From: a virus
Lineage: Duplodnaviria; Heunggongvirae; Uroviricota; Caudoviricetes
Strand: one strand, 5' to 3'
DNA length: 12,645 bases
IMG/VR virus record: IMGVR_UViG_2778261591_000019
Shown here in pieces: positions 2,409 to 11,510 of this stretch. The stretch's first letter is position 1. Each line of letters begins with the position of its first letter. The position numbers were made by a program, and so were the translations under genes. The notes under the pieces were generated by a model. The model was given only the letters and a program-made list of their open reading frames with translations, was not told where the DNA came from and did no database searches.

Positions 2409-2840
2409 CTATTCAGGTATTTCAATTCCAAAACCATCTGCATCCCATGAGTTTTCACAGATGATGTAACCTAGTTCATTGAGCTTATTAAATGTTTTTT
2501 CAAAGATGATCTGGTAATCATTATCTGCAAGTGATTCCAGTTCAAGGTCATTAAGGTTTATATAAAAACTTGTATGTCCAAGTGTTATTTTCTTATTGAT
2601 TTCATTAAAAGTTCTTTTGAAAATAATATTTGATATTTCATGCCGTGCATTGTTTGCAATAATTTTTGCTTCATAAGCAGAAATTACGTCATCTTCATGA
2701 ATATCTTTCAGAAAGCTGGTGTCAAGACGTTGTACTATTTCAGCGTTCATTGAGCGCTTATTGGCTTTTGCAGAAATTTCTATTTTTTCTTTTACTTCAA
2801 CGGGAAGTCTGATCCTTAGTTGTGGATCTTCTCTGCTCAT
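2409..2840 (-). CDS. mnt: Mnt-like ribbon-helix-helix repressor with an extra C-terminal domain of about 60 aa
   Basis: N-terminus MSREDPQLRIRLPVEVKEKIEISAKANKRSMNAEIVQRL matches the P22 Mnt RHH motif (DP..F..R.P.EV.EK....A.AN.RSMN.E..Q). ATG at 2840 preceded by a GGTGA SD. Divergent from the arc-like/ant genes as in P22 immI. 143 aa versus 83 aa for P22 Mnt. Confidence 0.75.
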   Translation of the reverse strand: MSREDPQLRIRLPVEVKEKIEISAKANKRSMNAEIVQRLDTSFLKDIHEDDVISAYEAKIIANNARHEISNIIFKRTFNEINKKITLGHTSFYINLNDLELESLADNDYQIIFEKTFNKLNELGYIICENSWDADGFGIEIPE

Positions 2841-2960: not shown

Positions 2961-3128
2961 ATGCAAAAAGCAAAAGAGATGTGTCAACGACGAGTTCGTT
3001 TTCCGGACGATGTGAAGTTAGCTATTGAAAGAAATGGCGAAAAAGAATGCCGAAAGTTCAATACAGAGATTATCTATCAGCTGAGGAAAGTGTATGGACT
3101 CACTGGTGAGAAGAATAGCGTGGCATAA
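2961..3128 (+). CDS. arc: Arc-like ribbon-helix-helix repressor (55 aa)
   Basis: ATG 2961 with strong SD (TAAGGAG, 7-nt spacing). 55 aa, similar in size to P22 Arc (53 aa). RVRFPDDVKLAI...NTEIIYQLRKV fits the RHH beta-strand/helix pattern. Immediately upstream of the antirepressor gene. Confidence 0.65.
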   Translation: MQKAKEMCQRRVRFPDDVKLAIERNGEKECRKFNTEIIYQLRKVYGLTGEKNSVA

Positions 3129-3200
3129 AACAGCGAAGCCCAACGGTGGCCAGACCGTCAGGGCTTCAGTATCGTAAAACTACGTATAGGAATTAACGAC
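3127..3200 (-). ncRNA. Predicted sar-like small antisense RNA across the antirepressor RBS/start
   Basis: Minus-strand promoter inside the first codons of ant: -35 TTGATA (complement of 3230-3235), 17-nt spacer, -10 TATACT (complement of 3207-3212). Minus-strand terminator: stem GAAGCCC/GGGCTTC (3135-3141 with 3161-3167) followed by a T-tract (complement of 3127-3134). Predicted length about 70 nt, as for P22 sar. Confidence 0.35.
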
Positions 3201-4145
3201 ATGACGAGTATAGCAACAGCGCTATCTACTATCAACGTGCCATTCCACGGCGCAGAACTTTATGTTGTCAATCACAACGGAGAACCGTACACCCCAATGA
3301 AACCTATCGTTGAAGGCATGGGTATGGATTGGGCTTCACAGTTTACGAAAATGAAGCAGCGGTTTAAAACCTGCATTGTGAAAATCACAATGCAGCTTCC
3401 TGGGGATGAACAGCGCCGTGAGATTATTTGTTTGGCACTTCGCAAACTTGCTGGCTGGTTGCAAACCATCAGCCCTAACAAAGTCCGCCCTGAAATCCGC
3501 GACAAGGTAATCCAGTATCAGGAAGAGTGTGACGATGTTCTCTACGAGTACTGGACTAAAGGCCATGTGGTTAACCCACGCAAAGCTAAAAAGGCGTTGC
3601 CGGGTAAAATAACCACTGAACAGCAGGAAGCCATTAAACAACTCGTCATGAGTCGCGGTCAGTCTCTGCCAAAAGAAAAACAGGCTAAGGCGATGATCAC
3701 CATGTGGTCGTCACTGAAATCTCATTTTGGCTGTTCGTACAAAGAAATTGATGAAGATCAATTCGCCGAAGCGTTGTCTCTTGTTGCTCGGGTTCCGCTT
3801 GAAGGGGAGCATCTCCCTGCTGGATCTGCATCAGAGAATGATGAAGTGGCAGTCAAGATGTTAGATGCGCTTCGTGAGGCAATTAAAACACAGACAAAAT
3901 GTTATGGTTATCCGCTGAAGCCCGGCTACCGCAGTCTGATTCATTCGCCGTCTGGTGTTCTCGGCCTGACGGAGAACTCACTGCTGATGAATCTGCTTAA
4001 CCAGTTACAGGACGACGGGCACGATGTATCGGGCGCGGCGGCGGAGCTGACCACCATGTTCTGCTACATCGTCGGTGTGAGCAAGTGCCTGCGTGATATC
4101 CAGACCCACGCGGAGTACATCAACGACAAGGCAGGGTTCTTCTGA
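3201..4145 (+). CDS. ant: Phage antirepressor (Ant); N-terminal AntA-type domain plus a C-terminal module shared with two other genes in the window
   Basis: 314-aa ORF directly after arc in the immI arrangement, with ATG 3201 and AGGA upstream. N-terminus VPFHGAELYVVNHNGEPYTPMKPIVEGMGMDW resembles antirepressor N-domains. C-terminal 77 aa are near-identical to the C-terminus of the 5121-5813 gene. Confidence 0.75.
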   Translation: MTSIATALSTINVPFHGAELYVVNHNGEPYTPMKPIVEGMGMDWASQFTKMKQRFKTCIVKITMQLPGDEQRREIICLALRKLAGWLQTISPNKVRPEIRDKVIQYQEECDDVLYEYWTKGHVVNPRKAKKALPGKITTEQQEAIKQLVMSRGQSLPKEKQAKAMITMWSSLKSHFGCSYKEIDEDQFAEALSLVARVPLEGEHLPAGSASENDEVAVKMLDALREAIKTQTKCYGYPLKPGYRSLIHSPSGVLGLTENSLLMNLLNQLQDDGHDVSGAAAELTTMFCYIVGVSKCLRDIQTHAEYINDKAGFF

Positions 4146-4169
4146 CAGAACGGCGGCACAGGGATGTGC
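3915..4169. repeat. Inverted repeat, left copy (3' end of ant plus about 24 bp downstream)
   Basis: Reverse complement of 5099-5353 matches 3915-4169 at about 95% identity by hand alignment (about 12 mismatches over 231 coding bp); similarity continues past the stop codons (CGGCGGCACAGGGATGTGC). Confidence 0.85.
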
Positions 4170-4196
4170 AAAACGGAACTATCGTGACATGTCACA

Positions 4197-4220
4197 GGCC
4201 GCTTTCGCGGCCTTGTTTTT
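4197..4220 (+). terminator. Rho-independent terminator downstream of ant
   Basis: GGCCGC-TTTC-GCGGCC hairpin (4197-4212) followed by TTGTTTTT (4213-4220). A 12-bp perfect palindrome GTGACATGTCAC lies immediately upstream (4184-4195). Confidence 0.6.
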
Positions 4221-4260
4221 AACGAATGCCACCGCCGCCCGGGCGGGAATCCGCAGACAC

Positions 4261-4281
4261 AAAAAAGCCCGCAACGCGGGC
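4261..4281 (-). terminator. Rho-independent terminator for the minus-strand toxin-like operon
   Basis: GCCCGC-AAC-GCGGGC hairpin (4267-4281) immediately after the minus-strand stop at 4282-4284, followed on the minus strand by TTTTTT (complement of 4261-4266). Confidence 0.6.
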
Positions 4282-4827
4282 TTATTCCTTCCATTTATCA
4301 GAAAAAAGATCTTCTTCTAAAGGCATTGGTTCTGTTTTTGTTTTCTCAAAGAATTGATAACTGATAGTGATTGCTTCCTCTTTAAACTCTTCTTGCTCAG
4401 TTATGTTGTGGGCATCTGCGTCAACAAAAAACATAACCAGCGCATCACGATTGTGATTTACCGAATAAACTAAAAAGCAATCACTTGTTGGTATGCATTT
4501 TACTTGCACAGACGCTATATTTTTCCATGCATCCCAAGATGATTTTTTACCAGTGTGTTTTTTATCACTATCTTCTGGAATATAGTCTTGGTTATCGACA
4601 TGAGTATGCCTGACATTTAGTTTAAGCATTTCTGTCGGACGAGCAAATGCAGCATCTTTACCAAGAGATGGATGGTATCCCGTTTTCCAATACTGGGTAA
4701 AGGCATCAGATACTTTCTTCAGCTCAAGATCAGATGCACAAAGGGCCGAGAAATTTTGCGTATGCAATACTCGACCCTTATATCTGACAATTTGATTTTT
4801 ATCATTCTGCGACGCAGACGAACTCAT
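4282..4827 (-). CDS. YafO-like toxin candidate (181 aa)
   Basis: ATG 4827 with AAGGA SD. By-eye similarity to E. coli YafO as I recall it: GKDAAF..P..LKLNVRHTHV versus GRDALY..P..IKFERVAHIHL, and FLVYSV...ALVMFFVDADAH versus HLVYCQ...WLLIAILKPEPH. The YafO sequence is from memory and unverified. Confidence 0.55.
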   Translation of the reverse strand: MSSSASQNDKNQIVRYKGRVLHTQNFSALCASDLELKKVSDAFTQYWKTGYHPSLGKDAAFARPTEMLKLNVRHTHVDNQDYIPEDSDKKHTGKKSSWDAWKNIASVQVKCIPTSDCFLVYSVNHNRDALVMFFVDADAHNITEQEEFKEEAITISYQFFEKTKTEPMPLEEDLFSDKWKE

Positions 4828-4981
4828 AATTTTCCTTATTGTTACGAGAATCAAAGAAAGCTCGGGATACGCGACTTGCGTGATCTTTTGTCATAGTAAC
4901 TTTTACGTACTCTACGCTTCCATTGAAAGAACGTCTTGCGGCAGCTTGCGCTCTACGCATCTGCAATTTTTCGTTTCGCAT
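4802..4981 (-). CDS. Small basic ORF (59 aa) overlapping the start of the toxin-like gene; candidate cognate antitoxin/regulator
   Basis: Not in the supplied ORF track (below size cutoff). ATG 4981 preceded by GAGG SD; stop TGA at 4804-4802 overlaps the downstream gene start by 26 nt. Promoter-like -35 TTGGTT (complement of 5031-5036), 17-nt spacer, -10 TGTAAT (complement of 5008-5013). Product MRNEKLQMRRAQAAARRSFNGSVEYVKVTMTKDHASRVSRAFFDSRNNKENYEFVCVAE. Confidence 0.35.
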   Translation of the reverse strand: MRNEKLQMRRAQAAARRSFNGSVEYVKVTMTKDHASRVSRAFFDSRNNKENYEFVCVAE

Positions 4982-5041
4982 GACATTACCTCATATCTCA
5001 TAAGTTCATTACACGGATTAATAAAAATGAAACCAATCCGT

Positions 5042-5056
5042 TTACCCTTGAGGTAA
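5042..5056. promoter_or_regulatory. TTACC-N5-GGTAA palindrome immediately upstream of the -35 of the toxin-like operon promoter
   Basis: TTACCCTTGAGGTAA read directly; same palindrome family as 6080-6096, 6173-6189 and 7292-7308. Confidence 0.35.
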
Positions 5057-5098
5057 TAGTACGCTATTCACCTGCAATCTGTACAGAATTATTTAAAG

Positions 5099-5353
5099 GC
5101 ACATCCCTGTGCGCCGCCCGTCAGAAGAACCCTGCTTTGTCGTTGATATACTCCGCGTGAGTCTGGATATCACGCAGGCATTTGCTCACACCAACGATGT
5201 AGCAGAACATGGTGGTCAGCTCCGCCGCCGCGCCAGATACGTCGTGCCCGTCTTCCTGTAACTGGTTCAGCAGATTCATCAGCAGTGAGTTCTCCGTCAG
5301 GCCGAGAACACCAGACGGAGAATGAATCAGGCTGCGGTATCCGGGCTTCAGTG
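5099..5353. repeat. Inverted repeat, right copy (3' end of the second antirepressor gene plus flanking bases)
   Basis: See left copy; the two copies encode nearly identical C-terminal peptides KPGYRSLIHSPSGVLGLTENSLLMNLLNQLQ(D/E)DGHDVSGAAAELTTMFCYIVGVSKCLRDIQTHAEYINDKAGFF on opposite strands. Confidence 0.85.
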
Positions 5354-5813
5354 GGGCGCTGTAGGTTTTGTTCTCTATCTTCATTGCCTGCATTACTGCT
5401 GACGCCGTGGCGTTGGCTACCTGGTCGGCAACCATCTTTATGCGTTCTTCCTGCGGGAGCGAGTTTTTAATGTAACTTCCAGTGCGGCGGATCTGAGGAA
5501 GAACCTCACCTGTAACCCATTCAAGAAATCTGAATGCTCTCGTTCCCTCTGTCATTGCCTCTTTGCAACGCAGAATAAGGATGTAGAGACCTGATTCTGA
5601 AACGATGGATAGTTCTTGTATTCCACCAGGGGTCTGTATTGAATACAGCCCCTTTTTGTTCCAGCCTTTTTTATCAAGTTTTCTCGCTTGTGTAACATCA
5701 ATATTCAAAGCATTGCACACATCTTTGGTGACAAACCAAGGTTCTCCGTCAATCATGAACATACGGATCTGGCAGGATGACTCAAAGGAAAAGATGGAAG
5801 GTTTGGTATTCAT
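5121..5813 (-). CDS. Second antirepressor: Bro-N-type N-terminal domain plus the shared antirepressor C-terminal module (230 aa)
   Basis: ATG 5813 with AGGTG SD. N-terminus IRMFMIDGEPWFVTKDVCNALNI...SESGLYILILRCKEAMTEGTRAFRFLEWVTGEVLPQIRR has classic Bro-N/antirepressor motifs. C-terminus as in ant. Confidence 0.8.
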   Translation of the reverse strand: MNTKPSIFSFESSCQIRMFMIDGEPWFVTKDVCNALNIDVTQARKLDKKGWNKKGLYSIQTPGGIQELSIVSESGLYILILRCKEAMTEGTRAFRFLEWVTGEVLPQIRRTGSYIKNSLPQEERIKMVADQVANATASAVMQAMKIENKTYSAPLKPGYRSLIHSPSGVLGLTENSLLMNLLNQLQEDGHDVSGAAAELTTMFCYIVGVSKCLRDIQTHAEYINDKAGFF

Positions 5814-6079
5814 GGCGATCACCTTTGTAGTTAGGTTAATCACCACCGCTGAGACCAATCAGATGGTGGTGAACTGTGCAGAGTTGGTCTTACCGGCTAC
5901 AAAGGAACCCGGCGCACCTTTCGGTGCCCCCACACAGCCCACCATAGAATAGGTGCGCTTTACACATAAAAAAACCGCTTATGCGGCATATGTGCCTCTG
6001 TAGTAATCCGGGAGACCAATCCCGGCACTGGATTTTGCCAGTGCCCGGTTACTATGGCACAGGATGAGTGCGATGTAAA

Positions 6080-6096
6080 TTTACCGTAAAGGTAAT
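6080..6096. promoter_or_regulatory. ATTACC-N5-GGTAAT palindrome (distal site upstream of the 6209 gene)
   Basis: ATTACCGTAAAGGTAAT read directly. Confidence 0.35.
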
Positions 6097-6172
6097 GATA
6101 AGCGCTGAGAAATATCAAAATCAACCGTATTTGGTTGATGGAGTTTAATGCTTGATCACCTGAAAGCAAGAT

Positions 6173-6189
6173 ATTACCTTTAAGGTAAT
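6173..6189. promoter_or_regulatory. ATTACC-N5-GGTAAT palindrome (proximal site, about 20 bp upstream of the 6209 start)
   Basis: ATTACCTTTAAGGTAAT read directly; preceded by ATCACCTGAAAG (6155-6166), which recurs at 7292-7303. Confidence 0.35.
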
Positions 6190-6208
6190 GTTATTGTGAG
6201 GAAAAGCA

Positions 6209-6937
6209 ATGGAAGTTTTCTGGATAGTTGTTGGTGTGGTTGCGGTGATTATTTATGTCCTTCACCAGAACAAGACTAAGATCTCTGATCGCACGGTCGT
6301 TAATCATAACAAAACGATAAAGACCGAAGATGGGGAGATAACGATTAATCGTACACAGGTGATAGAACACACCTCTACTCAGTTTCAAAAAACTGGAGGT
6401 AATGCGCCTAATATTTCCGCACCTCCTGCTTATGATAGTGAGGTAATCCAGACATATTATAAACAGCAGGAGTTAGCAAAAGAGAGGCAACTGATTCAGC
6501 CAAAGCCATTTACAGCAGAGCTTCCACCTGGAGTGTCAACGCGTCCGGCATATCATGGAAGATTCCCTGGTGATGACATATCGTCTCAGTCACCTAAAAA
6601 AGCACCTCAGGCAGTATCAGAGTCAGCAAGAATACCTTCTGTATCGCCGTCAAAAGAAGAATCAGCTAACAGAGTTTCAAGTGGCCGCAAGCAGTGTTTG
6701 CGATGCAGAATAAACCTTCCATATGAAAAATTCCGGAAATCGTCAAAAAATCCAGATGGATTGACTAAGTGGTGTGCAAGGTGTCTCGATGGCCCAAAGA
6801 ATACACGTCATATGAAGTGGTGCCCAATTTGTAATGTCCGCAGAAAACGAACCAGCTTTTATCCTAATAATCAAAATGCGGATGGTTTAATGGCATGGTG
6901 CAAAACGTGCTGGGACGAGCACAAAGCGAAACGATAG
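6209..6937 (+). CDS. Membrane-tethered protein with two tandem C-x2-C-x22-C-x2-C zinc-ribbon motifs (242 aa); function unknown
   Basis: ATG 6209 with GAGG SD. N-terminal TM helix (VFWIVVGVVAVIIYVL), S/P/Q-rich linker, then CLRC-x22-CARC and CPIC-x22-CKTC, each with a conserved P...N.DGL..WC core. Confidence 0.7.
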   Translation: MEVFWIVVGVVAVIIYVLHQNKTKISDRTVVNHNKTIKTEDGEITINRTQVIEHTSTQFQKTGGNAPNISAPPAYDSEVIQTYYKQQELAKERQLIQPKPFTAELPPGVSTRPAYHGRFPGDDISSQSPKKAPQAVSESARIPSVSPSKEESANRVSSGRKQCLRCRINLPYEKFRKSSKNPDGLTKWCARCLDGPKNTRHMKWCPICNVRRKRTSFYPNNQNADGLMAWCKTCWDEHKAKR

Positions 6938-6960
6938 GCCGCTCTTGCGGCCTTTTCTTT
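6937..6960 (+). terminator. Rho-independent terminator after the zinc-ribbon gene (possibly bidirectional)
   Basis: GGCCGC-TCTT-GCGGCC hairpin (6937-6952) plus TTTTCTTT; same stem sequence as the ant terminator at 4197-4212. Confidence 0.6.
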
Positions 6961-7216
6961 ATGTAGTTTGTTTTCGTAATTGTTCGGCACAATAGTCGAG
7001 ATGTGTTTGCAGATCCTGCATAGACATCTGTGAGCTGGTGACGTAGTTAATCAGTGCAGTCAGTTCGGCAAGTGGGCCATCGACATTAAATCCATCCTTA
7101 TCGAGATCCCGGAGTAATTTCATCAAGTGCGATCCCTCCACCAGTGACCTGACGCCTCCCGGCGTGTGAATCCTTTCGGTAAATCCCTCTTCCAGTGGAT
7201 AGTGATACTGCTGCAT
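6959..7216 (-). CDS. Stand-alone antirepressor C-terminal-module protein (85 aa)
   Basis: ATG 7216 with GGAG SD. IHTPGGVRSLVEGSHLMKLLRDLDKDGFNVDGPLAELTALINYV...DLQTHLDY aligns with IHSPSGVLGLTENSLLMNLLNQLQDDGHDVSGAAAELTTMFCYI...DIQTHAEY of both antirepressors, about 45% identity by eye. Confidence 0.7.
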   Translation of the reverse strand: MQQYHYPLEEGFTERIHTPGGVRSLVEGSHLMKLLRDLDKDGFNVDGPLAELTALINYVTSSQMSMQDLQTHLDYCAEQLRKQTT

Positions 7217-7291
7217 CTTATCTTCTCCATGCAATAACTGTATAAATATACAGTAGCAAATAATTTGTTTGCTATCCAGCACGTTTTGCGA

Positions 7292-7411: not shown

Positions 7412-9406
7412 ATGACGGTCTCAACCGAAGTTGACCACAACGAATATACAGGTAACGGTGTTACAACTACGTTCCCTTATACCTTTAGGATTTTCCAGAA
7501 ATCTGATCTGGTGGTGCAGGTGATTGACCTTGACGAGAATATCACTGTGCTGGCTCTTGATACTGATTACGCAGTCACTGGTGCGGGAGGCTATAGCGGC
7601 GGTAATATAATACTGTCGAAGGCATTGGCCAACGGTTATCAGATCTCTATATCACGAGAGCTCCCGGTTACTCAGGAAACAGATCTGCGTAATCAGGGTA
7701 AATTCTTTGCAGAGGTGCATGAGGATGCGTTTGATAAGCTAACGATGCTGATTCAACAATGTCGTAGCTTGTTTCGTCTTGCACTTTGCAAACCATCAAG
7801 TATTGCAAACTGGTACGACGCTTTAAATAACAGGATTAGAAATCTTAAAGATCCAGAAAGCCCTCAGGATGCAGTAACTTTAAGTTATCTTGAAGGGTAT
7901 ATAGAAGGTGGTGATAGTACTTTGCGTCCAGATATTACAAGAACTGGAGCTGTAGGGAATAATATACAGCAAGCCATAAACTTATCTATAGCCGGTCAAA
8001 CTGTAATTACGATGAAAGATGATGAAATTGTATCTTCATTGTTAAATGAATATGGTGTTGAAATTGAGCAACGCAGGGGGCGTGTATTTAATACAGAAGG
8101 TGTTCAACTAACAACGTATTCTGACCCTCGTTCCCGTTTTGTAACTGGTGACCAATATCTTAATTATGTTATTAGCAAGATGATAAAAGCAGATGGCGTG
8201 GATAAATCACAGAAAACATATATTTTGTGGTCTGGTGACTCCACGATTGTTGGTGTTAACTCTGAATTATGGCCACCAGCAACTATTGCTGATTTTTATG
8301 CAAAAAGGTATGGAATTATTGATGTAAAAAATACATCGTTAGGTCATTCAGGTAAAACTCTATACGAATGGGGTAATTGGTATATTGATCAGGAATGGTC
8401 TGTTTTTTCTGCTGCTGATTTGATTGTTTTACGATGGGGAATTAACGATCCATATTATGGTTATACATTGGATCAAGTAAAAGACGCATTAGATAGAGGT
8501 CTTTCCAAGTTACGAAATAACAAATCAGTTTCCCAGCAATCAATTATTATCATGTCCCCAAACTCAACATCAGACACACCAAACGGACGTGATGAAAAAT
8601 GGTATGAACAGTTAACAGCCGTACTTAGAGCCAAAGCAAAACAATATAAGTGTATGTTTTTTGATACTTACGGTATGTGGCAGGATTCGCGAGGATCTGC
8701 TGGTAACTGGCTTGACGACCCTTATGGCGATGGCAGGGGAATACACCCAAACTCAACATTTAGCGCACAGATACATAAATTATTATTTGAATATATTTAT
8801 GGACCGTGTGCTGTTATAAATGGGAGTAGCAACCTTTTTTCTAACAATGGTTCTTCCATACAATTCATCAATAGCTCATATCCGCCAAATACTTTTCACA
8901 TGGGGACTTCATGGTGGAGAACAAACCCTGATGATGCTTCTTGGCCTCTTGACGGTGTTATTCAGGTTGATAGATTTGTTGACGGAATAGTAGTACAAAA
9001 AAATTATGGTTATTCTTCAGATAATGCTCGCGTTTGCTTAATGAGGATTGGAAGGATTAGTGAGAATACATGGAGTACATGGCGAGGTAATCAGTATGAT
9101 ATGAGTGGCATATTGCAAAATGGTTGGTCTGTAGGTGAGGCAAGAAGTGGAACATATCAGAAATCAGCCGAGGGCGTTGTTACTTTATCTGCTGTTTTAA
9201 CAGGTGGAAATACATCTGTTGGCACAGTTATTATGGTATTGCCAGAAGGGTTTAGACCAAAGAATGATATTTCTTATATTCCATCAGGTACTGATTCATC
9301 GGTTGCCCTCATTAATATACTTTCAAACGGTAAAGTTACAATTCAGAGCTATCCGTCAGGAACAGTTCTTGTAATTAATACGACATTCCCTTCATTAGTT
9401 AATTAG
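7412..9406 (+). CDS. Tailspike/tail fibre with conserved N-terminal particle-binding domain, central SGNH (GDSL-type) esterase domain and C-terminal beta-rich receptor-binding region (664 aa)
   Basis: ATG 7412 with GGAG SD. SGNH blocks: WSGDST (G275-D276-S277), LGHSGKT, WGINDP, GRGIHPN. N-terminal about 120 aa (NEYTGNGVTTTFPYTF...DTDYAVTG) resembles tail-fibre/tailspike anchor domains. Size and domain order fit an O-antigen-deacetylating tailspike. Confidence 0.8.
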   Translation: MTVSTEVDHNEYTGNGVTTTFPYTFRIFQKSDLVVQVIDLDENITVLALDTDYAVTGAGGYSGGNIILSKALANGYQISISRELPVTQETDLRNQGKFFAEVHEDAFDKLTMLIQQCRSLFRLALCKPSSIANWYDALNNRIRNLKDPESPQDAVTLSYLEGYIEGGDSTLRPDITRTGAVGNNIQQAINLSIAGQTVITMKDDEIVSSLLNEYGVEIEQRRGRVFNTEGVQLTTYSDPRSRFVTGDQYLNYVISKMIKADGVDKSQKTYILWSGDSTIVGVNSELWPPATIADFYAKRYGIIDVKNTSLGHSGKTLYEWGNWYIDQEWSVFSAADLIVLRWGINDPYYGYTLDQVKDALDRGLSKLRNNKSVSQQSIIIMSPNSTSDTPNGRDEKWYEQLTAVLRAKAKQYKCMFFDTYGMWQDSRGSAGNWLDDPYGDGRGIHPNSTFSAQIHKLLFEYIYGPCAVINGSSNLFSNNGSSIQFINSSYPPNTFHMGTSWWRTNPDDASWPLDGVIQVDRFVDGIVVQKNYGYSSDNARVCLMRIGRISENTWSTWRGNQYDMSGILQNGWSVGEARSGTYQKSAEGVVTLSAVLTGGNTSVGTVIMVLPEGFRPKNDISYIPSGTDSSVALINILSNGKVTIQSYPSGTVLVINTTFPSLVN

Positions 9407-11355: not shown

Positions 11356-11510
11356 CATGGCATTTTTCATGGTACTGATTTCCGGTGACGGTATATAAAA
11401 CGGTACCAGAAAAATGAAGTTTTGGAAAAATGTTATCACTCAATTGGTTATGATTGTCGTAAATAATTGAGTGGGAATGATTTTAATCCCTGCACTATGA
11501 ATGAACAAAA

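Follow-up and report, generated by a model that had tools for sequence, protein, structure and literature searches.

The window analyzed here, a 12,645-nt stretch of DNA, belongs to a TL-2011b-like (phiV10/epsilon15-type) E. coli prophage. Two convergent antirepressor genes, here called ant and bro, face each other across a toxin-like cassette. Arc-like repressor genes and a sar RNA precede ant, whereas isrK and C4 RNAs precede bro. The features are listed below.

2409–2840, minus strand: gene for an Arc-family (Mnt-like) DNA-binding protein (Pfam Arc PF03869, E 1.2e-14), divergent from the arc-ant operon
2961–3128, plus strand: small Arc-like repressor gene, 55 aa (PHROG Arc-like repressor match), immediately 5' of ant
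3132–3199, minus strand: sar antisense RNA of the P22 immI type (Rfam RF00262, 45.2 bits, just over the gathering score of 43), in the arc-ant spacer
3201–4145, plus strand: ant, 314 aa, with P22_AR_N (aa 12–123) and an SPC32H-Ant-like domain (aa ~226–314)
3915–4170, plus strand: left arm of the inverted repeat, core 3915–4146 plus ~24 nt 3' of the stop codon
4196–4213, plus strand: predicted terminator-like hairpin 3' of ant
4265–4283, minus strand: predicted terminator-like hairpin 3' of the yafO-like gene
4282–4827, minus strand: YafO-family toxin-like gene, 181 aa (Pfam YafO_toxin, 26.3 bits vs a cut-off of 25; RefSeq annotation)
4802–4981, minus strand: 59-aa ORF overlapping the yafO start, in the antitoxin position (phrog_6685, E 3e-45)
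5097–5351, minus strand: right arm of the inverted repeat, core 5120–5351 plus ~22 nt 3' of the stop codon
5121–5813, minus strand: bro, 230 aa, with Bro-N (aa 16–106) and an SPC32H-Ant-like domain (aa ~147–230)
5862–5949, minus strand: C4 antisense RNA of the P1 immI type (Rfam RF01695, 78.6 bits vs a gathering score of 45), 5' of bro
5968–6044, minus strand: isrK-like RNA (Rfam RF01394, 74.7 bits vs a gathering score of 50), 5' of C4 and bro
6959–7216, minus strand: stand-alone third copy of the C-terminal module, an orthologue of SPC32H Ant, 85 aa (PDB 5D50_E, phrog_450)
7238–7253: perfect LexA-box palindrome, CTGTATAAATATACAG, 22 nt 5' of the start codon of the stand-alone ant

The placement of ant and of bro (counted from its ATG) made in a first-pass annotation held, while the start of the yafO-like ORF was corrected from 4830 to 4827. 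Its N-terminal domain labels stood for bro, which matches Pfam Bro-N (E 1.8e-13), but not for ant, which had been called AntA-type and instead matches Pfam P22_AR_N (PF10547; E 9.6e-45). The C-terminal parts of both proteins match phrog_450, at residues 232–312 of ant and 147–228 of bro. RefSeq homologues of the divergent gene at 2409–2840 are labelled as a 143-aa Arc family protein, the TL-2011b counterpart of the small gene ahead of ant carries the annotation “Arc-like repressor,” and a promoter-like site is predicted at 2897–2925, ahead of this small arc. The C4 RNA is encoded upstream of bro (start at 5813, minus strand) on the same strand. The LexA box is the sole match to CTGT-N8-ACAG in the window, and the Rep gene lies outside the window.

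A search of the window against itself returned one outstanding inverted repeat, with arms at 3877–4146 and 5120–5389 (270 nt, 90% complementary, 973 nt apart); the runner-up was only 29 nt long at 76%. In ungapped register, the core (3915–4146 vs 5120–5351) is identical at 220 of 232 positions, or 94.8%, and blastn extends the match to 258 nt at 93.4% (3912–4169 vs 5354–5099). The first-pass estimate of a repeat of ~255 bp at ~95% identity is thus confirmed. So are its observations that the last 77 codons of the two genes are nearly identical and that similarity continues for ~24 nt beyond both stop codons, which it does with a 2-nt indel (CAGAACGGCGGCACAGGGATGTGC vs CGGGCGGCGCACAGGGATGTGC). 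Eleven of the 12 core differences are synonymous and one is non-synonymous (pS 0.20, pN 0.006), so the last 77 residues of ant and bro differ by one change (D/E). A literature search for descriptions of this inverted repeat found none.

Judged by homology, each arm encodes a complete domain of ~80 residues related to Ant, a small antirepressor of the epsilon15-like Salmonella phage SPC32H whose structure has been solved. The arm-encoded C-terminal peptide of ant matches PDB 5D50_E with an E value of 1.1e-14 over residues 3–79 of 86 in a PDB sequence search. The stand-alone copy matches the same entry, named “Anti-repressor protein,” at E 5e-48 and is near-identical to it across 84 residues. 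The family phrog_450 takes in all three copies (E 1.4e-47 for the stand-alone one), and a C-terminal block formerly considered “hypothetical” is hereby identified as an SPC32H-type antirepressor domain. The domain family is limited in size: a set of 1.84 billion proteins yielded 63 representative clusters, the majority being stand-alone proteins 85–95 aa long. A protein homologue search with the 82-aa domain gave only 19 short proteins, with no fusion architectures among them; fusions were seen in genomic loci instead. An AlphaFold2 model of the arm domain, built from a 10-sequence alignment, is helical with a pLDDT of 64, which is low confidence, and a Foldseek search of the PDB with this model gave nothing below E = 5.

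SPC32H Ant, studied by Kim & Ryu (2013) and Kim et al. (2016), is described in papers citing that work as a tetramer that binds Rep dimers and frees Rep from DNA (PMC9638917, PMC9986798), touching the tetramerization domain of Rep (PMC9986798). The arm-encoded domain is 36% identical to the stand-alone Ant orthologue, and because of this low identity the fused domains could target a different repressor. [quoted passage not shown] In our comparison, this ORF4 pairs Bro-N with the same arm, whose DNA is 96% identical.

In related prophages, the same arm, at 95–98% DNA identity, is joined to P22_AR_N, to two or more Bro-N subtypes, to ORF6N, and to AntA heads, so that its N-terminal partners number five kinds or more. 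The Bro-N type found on the right here sits on the left in locus L018. These arrangements strongly support the module-shuffling reading put forward in the first-pass annotation. Base composition follows the same division, with a GC content of 0.56–0.58 in the arm, 0.43–0.49 in the N-terminal parts, and 0.35–0.42 in the cargo. About 1100 of the 5426 complete E. coli genomes searched contain a match to the arm block.

We then compared 125 arms. They fall into 101 haplotypes with 52 segregating sites, 43 of which are third codon positions, and pN/pS is about 0.03. These arms encode essentially two protein alleles, although this near-invariance is partly a sampling effect since most arms came from the best 80 of 305 IMG/VR matches, ordered by protein identity. 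Among informative site pairs, 49% show all four gametes, and Rm for the 232 nt is 16. Diversity also changes along the genes: π in bro is 0 across the first 200 nt and 0.02–0.06 in the arm, and in ant it is about 0.01 mid-gene and 0.02–0.056 in the arm. The arms therefore form one heavily recombining allele pool under strong protein-level constraint, and DNA-level exchange among them at the population level is supported. The arm domain is probably the part that engages the phage Rep repressor and oligomerizes, which would explain why the protein varies so little.

We consider it likely that the inverted repeat results from a shared domain: in a TL-2011b-like E. coli prophage, one kind of domain closes both of two antirepressor genes transcribed toward each other. 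The locus is probably a product of ordinary modular phage evolution rather than a dedicated DNA switch. Conserved arm DNA, together with short conserved spacers adjoining it, would serve as portable homology, and general or phage-encoded homologous recombination may use this homology to swap N-terminal domains and cargo.

The slot between the arms is variable. Here, as had been noted at first pass, the repeats flank a toxin-like cassette and its terminators: the YafO-family ORF and the hairpins at 4196–4213 (plus) and 4283–4265 (minus) all lie between the arms. As a candidate type II toxin-antitoxin pair of the YafO family, the cassette has a YafO_toxin match barely above its cut-off (26.3 vs 25) and a small overlapping ORF at the 5' end of that gene. 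The identical YafO-like protein is recorded in 2292 blocks of the searched collection, and its gene has a GC content of 0.35–0.42. The 59-aa ORF is called as a gene in several assemblies and has no Pfam or antitoxin family match. The cargo would be co-transcribed with bro and end at the 4283–4265 terminator; the basis for this is only the absence of a predicted promoter or terminator between bro and the cargo. Across 34 two-arm loci, we found 12 cargo clusters, and complete genomes likewise show different annotated cargos between the arms. We did not call the slot a defense hotspot, as PADLOC gave zero matches for 10 cargo proteins.

It had also been suggested that the repeat marks the recombination joint by which the cargo was acquired. 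This holds only approximately: cargos do vary, but the arms are not the exact joint. Between loci with differing cargos, shared homology reaches ~111–330 bp inside the left arm and ~85 bp inside the right arm, so the arms are part of the flanking homology.

We weighed several other explanations. The first is that gene conversion within each genome holds the two arms close in sequence, a concerted evolution of the inverted repeat, as the first-pass annotation had allowed. Left and right arms do share polymorphisms and have no fixed differences, the identity reaches into non-coding DNA 3' of the stop codons, and in certain loci the arms are just 3–5 mismatches apart. However, arms are no closer within a genome than between genomes (8.97 vs 8.81 mismatches; permutation P = 0.67), and those of this window differ at 12 of 232 sites with a pS of 0.20. 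Furthermore, whole genes swap position among loci, as the Bro-N type does, and such changes of position would alone be sufficient to mix alleles between left and right. Homogenization of arms within genomes is therefore not supported, and we regard this explanation as improbable.

A second explanation is a functional inversion switch acting on the repeat, in which 4147–5119 would flip and alter the timing of toxin cassette expression. The cargo and terminators would leave the bro operon, under isrK/C4 control, and join the ant operon, under Arc/sar control, and the terminators are indeed asymmetrically placed within the invertible segment. A crossover between the arms leaves both proteins intact, and two contigs show the inverted orientation. 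One, the only clean candidate, is a draft contig of IMG isolate 2740892230, L061, that is 99.95% identical to TL-2011b with the slot inverted; its arm changes from left type to right type between 4162 and 4219, and its Ant is identical to that of TL-2011b. However, the contig stops 13 nt into the second arm and the arm type changes within a 56-nt identical run, a pattern that resembles k-mer misassembly and could be just that. The other is a metagenome contig, L021, in which a DUF4760 cargo faces the opposite way from that in L018 and L065, with breakpoints within the repeat. We do not take it as decisive proof of inversion: its cargo keeps its orientation relative to the neighboring bro gene and its source metagenome holds many related phages, so inter-phage recombination or chimeric assembly would explain it equally well. 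A further candidate, L054 compared with L023 and L044, is not a slot inversion, as the inverted block takes in two genes along with the cargo, 3.26 kb in all, and the inversion runs through an outer repeat of 276 nt at 81% identity in the bro upstream regions. This outer repeat is absent from the window.

The surveys also speak against a switch. The inverted ant-YafO junction occurs in 0 of 5426 complete E. coli genomes and the normal one in at least 11. Exact-anchor pattern scans gave 10 normal junctions and 1 inverted, and scans of genome contigs found neither. Cargo orientation is the same in 32 of 34 two-arm loci, all eight distinct YafO contexts (28 contigs) are co-directional with the gene beside the stand-alone ant, and no invertase or recombinase is annotated within 3–5 kb in nine homologous annotated loci. 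The earlier statement that the segment could physically invert with both proteins preserved stands, but inversion is rare or unproven. A working inversion switch is not supported, and we consider it quite unlikely.

Crossing-over between the arms may still invert the slot from time to time, probably as a rare by-product and not as a regulated event. A stronger version, in which such crossover is a real and recurrent event that rewires the locus by moving the cargo and its two asymmetric terminators to the other operon, with L061 as a fixed example, seems doubtful to us. If true, the antirepressor domain would double as a natural site of cassette exchange and operon swapping.

Third, the repeat could be an old duplication held under purifying selection on the protein, with no role in DNA exchange or rearrangement. 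The near-invariant protein and the pN/pS of about 0.03 fit this idea. However, protein-level selection leaves unexplained the 80% synonymous-site identity beside N-terminal parts that are unrelated or 83% identical, and likewise the match past the stop codons, the four-gamete signal with an Rm of 16 in 232 nt, and the jump in diversity limited to the arm within otherwise identical genes. We find this very unlikely. Finally, although an inverted repeat bracketing AT-rich, foreign-looking cargo could recall the terminal inverted repeats of a mobile cassette that brought the cargo, this is scarcely credible, as the arms code for domains of two functional proteins' genes already in place, phiV10-type phages carry a single arm copy without a second arm, there is no transposase, the cargo boundaries lie about 85–330 bp inside the arms rather than at their ends, and the same arms bracket 12 different cargos.

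In our preferred reading of convergent genes sharing one domain, the locus reveals no new mechanism. It is a clean natural case of a conserved coding block acting as common homology for the exchange of both N-terminal domains and cargo. A single prophage can carry the domain three times, each copy under its own predicted element: a LexA box, Arc with sar, and isrK with C4. This pattern suggests that phiV10/TL-2011b-type phages feed several signals into a single effector domain in the course of induction or anti-immunity.

Parts of this arrangement resemble known systems. As in the P22 immI region (mnt, arc, sar RNA, ant), there is a divergent Arc-family gene, a small arc, a sar match, and P22_AR_N in Ant. 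Its position beside the tailspike gene is likewise that seen in P22. Pfam found no P22_AR_C in ant, whose C-terminal half is instead phrog_450/SPC32H-Ant-like, and the phage type differs from P22 in being epsilon15/phiV10-like. The bro side resembles the P1/P7 immI region (c4 RNA-icd-ant) and the Gifsy-1 isrK-orf45-anrP region (PMC4825925). The isrK and C4 models match directly 5' of bro, which makes RNA-level control of this antirepressor-like gene likely, but here the gene 3' of these RNAs is a Bro-N/SPC32H-Ant fusion and has cargo after it.

The stand-alone copy reproduces the SPC32H Ant-Rep arrangement, as a near-identical orthologue likewise with a LexA box at its 5' side. In contrast, the arm domains are the C-terminal halves of larger proteins with P22_AR_N or Bro-N heads, carrying 150–230 extra N-terminal residues; they are not small SOS-controlled proteins, and their genes follow antisense-RNA modules without a LexA box. 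The slot is similar to phage moron slots (PMC3573123) in its AT-rich, prophage-variable cargo with its own terminator at a fixed position, but it is flanked by inverted copies of one coding domain, and the 10 cargo proteins had no PADLOC match.

Two other comparisons can be made. Invertible segments include the G segment of Mu, the C segment of P1, Salmonella hin, and the shufflons. These likewise have inverted repeats at the 3' ends of genes, with reading frames kept upon inversion; here there is no invertase gene, the complete genomes searched did not show both orientations, and the arms are long coding sequences (232 nt) rather than short crossover sites. Domain shuffling in Bro-N/KilA-N/ANT-type phage regulators was reportedly described by Iyer, Koonin, and Aravind in 2002. 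There, as here, many N-terminal DNA-binding-like modules share a single C-terminal module, but at this locus the exchange can be followed in the DNA of a single phage lineage, as a recombining block of 95–98% identity, two copies of which lie convergently in one genome.

A repeat search of the window returned an inverted repeat with arms at 3877-4146 and 5120-5389, 270 nt long, 90% complementary and spaced 973 nt apart. The runner-up in the 12.6-kb window spans 29 nt at 76%, and the arm-to-arm repeat is far beyond chance. In the core, 3915-4146 and 5120-5351 are identical at 220/232 positions (94.8%), and blastn aligned 258 nt at 93.4% identity. Each arm is the 3' end of an ORF. The two ORFs, ant (3201-4145, plus strand, 314 aa) and bro (5121-5813, minus strand, 230 aa), converge, and the similarity of the arms goes about 24 nt beyond the stop codons on both sides, with a 2-nt indel. 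Repeat search, ungapped core comparison, blastn and ORF positions all confirmed the repeat as the first-pass annotation had described it. The 12 core differences comprise 11 synonymous changes and one D/E replacement (pS 0.20, pN 0.006).

Pfam recognized only the N-terminal domains of the two proteins: Bro-N in bro (E 1.8e-13) and, in ant, P22_AR_N (E 9.6e-45), which replaces the AntA label given earlier. The C-terminal parts of both belong to phrog_450 (PHROGs), as does a stand-alone 85-aa gene at 6959-7216 (minus strand), which brings the module to three copies in the window. This third copy shares 36% protein identity with the arms. It matches PDB 5D50 chain E ("Anti-repressor protein") almost residue for residue (E 5e-48) and is an orthologue of SPC32H Ant. 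The arm peptide alone matches residues 3-79 of 86 in the same chain (E 1.1e-14). PDB 5D50 is the Ant-Rep complex from the epsilon15-like Salmonella phage SPC32H, and Ant acts on Rep through Rep's tetramerisation domain (PMC9986798). In phage vB_EcoP_ZX5 the arm, 96% identical in DNA, is part of a Bro-N protein that lowered lysogens about 1000-fold when overexpressed (PMC9782041). The repeat is explained by two paralogous fusions that both carry an SPC32H-type antirepressor domain at the C-terminus and converge on a moron slot. The family of this module is small and restricted in lineage: among 1.84 billion proteins it forms 63 representative clusters, most of them stand-alone and 85-95 aa long. 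Of 50,697 phage records, only 14 contain the arm DNA, and all 14 are Uetakevirus-like; among 5426 complete E. coli genomes, about 1100 match the region.

The window is 96% identical to Escherichia phage TL-2011b across 81% of its length, and its right half is common to phiV10-type (Uetakevirus) phages. The gene order is as follows.

Left end: injection-type protein; hypothetical gene (minus); Arc-family gene (minus); small arc (plus)
Middle: ant (plus); cargo (minus); bro (minus); second variable slot with a 242-aa ORF
Right: 85-aa gene (minus); tailspike (GDSL esterase type); holins; GH19 endolysin; spanin

The tailspike (7412-9406, plus strand) combines a T7-tail-fibre-like N-terminus with a GDSL/SGNH esterase domain and is a receptor-binding protein of the O-antigen deacetylase type; related prophages carry pectate-lyase, GH28 or Peptidase_S74 types at this position. 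The 17-nt attP/attB core described for phiV10, epsilon15 and vB_EcoP_ZX5, ATTGAGTGGGAATGATT, recurs without a mismatch at 11466-11482 (plus strand), with the spanin genes on one side and a DUF5384-type gene on the other; it lies inside a 28-nt imperfect inverted repeat (11426-11484).

The stand-alone ant (region 6959-7282, minus strand) is divergent from the tailspike gene and has a perfect LexA-box palindrome, CTGTATAAATATACAG, at 7238-7253, 22 nt 5' of its start codon. Kim and Ryu are said to have found, in 2013, that ant of SPC32H-type phages is SOS-controlled, and the predicted box is consistent with such control. Rfam placed three RNAs, all above the gathering score, beside the fused copies.

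3132-3199, minus strand, sar RNA, exactly between arc and ant
5862-5949, minus strand, C4 antisense RNA, directly upstream of bro
5968-6044, minus strand, isrK, directly upstream of bro with C4

The convergent antirepressor genes therefore have two different antisense-RNA control modules. Counting the LexA box, three differently controlled genes appear to deliver one antirepressor domain, a regulatory logic we infer from these elements.

The comparison covered 10 annotated loci (complete E. coli genomes and phages) and 80 IMG/VR loci, taken from 305 as those highest in protein identity, a choice that inflates apparent protein invariance. Many loci in this set have a single arm and resemble phiV10 in layout, two convergent genes (ant/bro or bro/bro) supply a pair of arms in 34, and one has three arms. 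phiV10 itself has only the bro-type gene and lacks ant. ORF6N and AntA N-terminal domains are also fused to the same arm, a GC-rich island (0.56-0.58) beside N-terminal parts at 0.43-0.49 and cargo at 0.35-0.42. One arm joined to various N-terminal domains among related loci supports the module shuffling proposed at first pass. In the ORF6N/AntA fusions (L091 1980-2699; L094 2044-2700; proteins P0001 and P0003), the module starts ...MPAIMEAIKLEDKKEYSAPLKPGY, the full N-terminus, start Met included, of 95-97-aa stand-alone proteins 90% identical to the arm domain; this suggests in-frame capture of a once stand-alone gene, or internal-start annotations. The module set is further rearranged in L069 (4005-4566), where the ant arm directly adjoins the stand-alone ant and cargo and bro are absent, and in the metagenome contig L021 (1628-5548), which has three arms.

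The 125 arms resolve into 101 DNA haplotypes with 52 segregating sites, 43 at third codon positions, and essentially two protein alleles, an invariance inflated by taking the best 80 of 305 IMG/VR loci by protein identity. Four gametes occur in 49% of informative site pairs, with a Hudson-Kaplan Rm of 16 in 232 nt. Diversity among otherwise identical bro genes rises from zero across the first 200 nt to 0.02-0.06 within the arm, and ant diversity shows the same step. Left and right arms have no fixed differences, and mismatches average 8.97 within one genome vs 8.81 between genomes (P = 0.67). From these patterns, the arms form one allele pool that has recombined heavily; they are not paired copies homogenised genome by genome. 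Of the gene conversion suggested earlier, population-level exchange among arms is supported and intragenomic conversion is not.

Cargo varies widely between the arms, with 12 unrelated types in the 34 two-arm loci (IMG/VR part, best 80 of 305), including two YafO-like toxins, DUF4760, DUF2335 and several proteins without family; a PADLOC search with 10 cargo proteins gave no matches. The window's yafO-like gene is present as annotated, with its start corrected to 4827 (minus strand). Loci with different cargos have about 111-330 bp in common beside the left arm, a stretch with the ant terminator and, in most cases, a membrane-anchored ORF of 53 aa, and about 85 bp beside the right arm. The arms are therefore part of the flanking homology: the idea that they mark a recombination joint is right about cargo turnover but not about the exact joint. 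Most related loci have this 53-aa "transmembrane anchored protein" gene, placed between yafO and the ant terminator; it is absent from the window (4147-4281, compared with TL-2011b, L004 4318-4645), where the inter-arm distance is 973 nt vs 1171-1173 nt. Two terminator-like sites lie between the arms.

4283-4265, after yafO
4196-4213, after ant

Cargo is probably co-transcribed with bro, because no promoter- or terminator-like site was predicted between bro and the 59-aa ORF plus yafO, and a terminator-like site follows yafO. The second variable slot, from bro to the stand-alone ant (5814-6958), holds a 242-aa ORF (6209-6937, plus strand, phrog_6762) whose C-terminus matches an endonuclease VII/HNH/Lar-like zinc finger; strain MSB1_8B (L009) has a different YafO-family toxin and an upstream ORF in this slot, which is empty in several other loci.

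Inversion between the arms, raised at first pass, is possible, though no more than rare. In a search with a constructed inverted junction (ant and its arm joined to the cargo end in reverse), 0/5426 complete E. coli genomes matched at ≥80% coverage; at least 11 have the normal ant-YafO-bro arrangement. Relative to the stand-alone ant, the cargo keeps one orientation in 32/34 loci (IMG/VR part, best 80 of 305), and the exact YafO protein does so in 8/8 distinct contexts. Exact-anchor pattern scans found the normal junction 7 times in IMG/VR and 3 times in metagenomes; the inverted junction turned up once in IMG/VR and never in metagenomes, and species-representative genomes had neither. The lone inverted junction, on draft contig L061 (99.95% identical to TL-2011b), changes from left-type to right-type arm between 4162 and 4219 and leaves the Ant protein intact. 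The switch falls within a 56-nt identical run and the contig stops 13 nt into the second arm; a true crossover would leave the same picture as a k-mer misassembly. In L021 the DUF4760 cargo is inverted with breakpoints inside the repeat, and this contig could be a chimera. Where a locus has two bro genes, their upstream regions form an outer inverted repeat (276 nt, 81% identical), which in L054 lies at two positions.

About 3232-3499 and 6221-6488, outer repeat in L054

Through it, the entire 3.26-kb segment with both genes and the cargo is inverted in L054 vs L023 and L044, and so occurs both ways round with respect to the tailspike side. The region therefore does rearrange, though not via the arms.

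Our literature search found no published description of the repeat or of the fused architecture. What the locus shows is of known kinds: Bro/Ant regulators that shuffle domains, moron slots and mosaic phage junctions.
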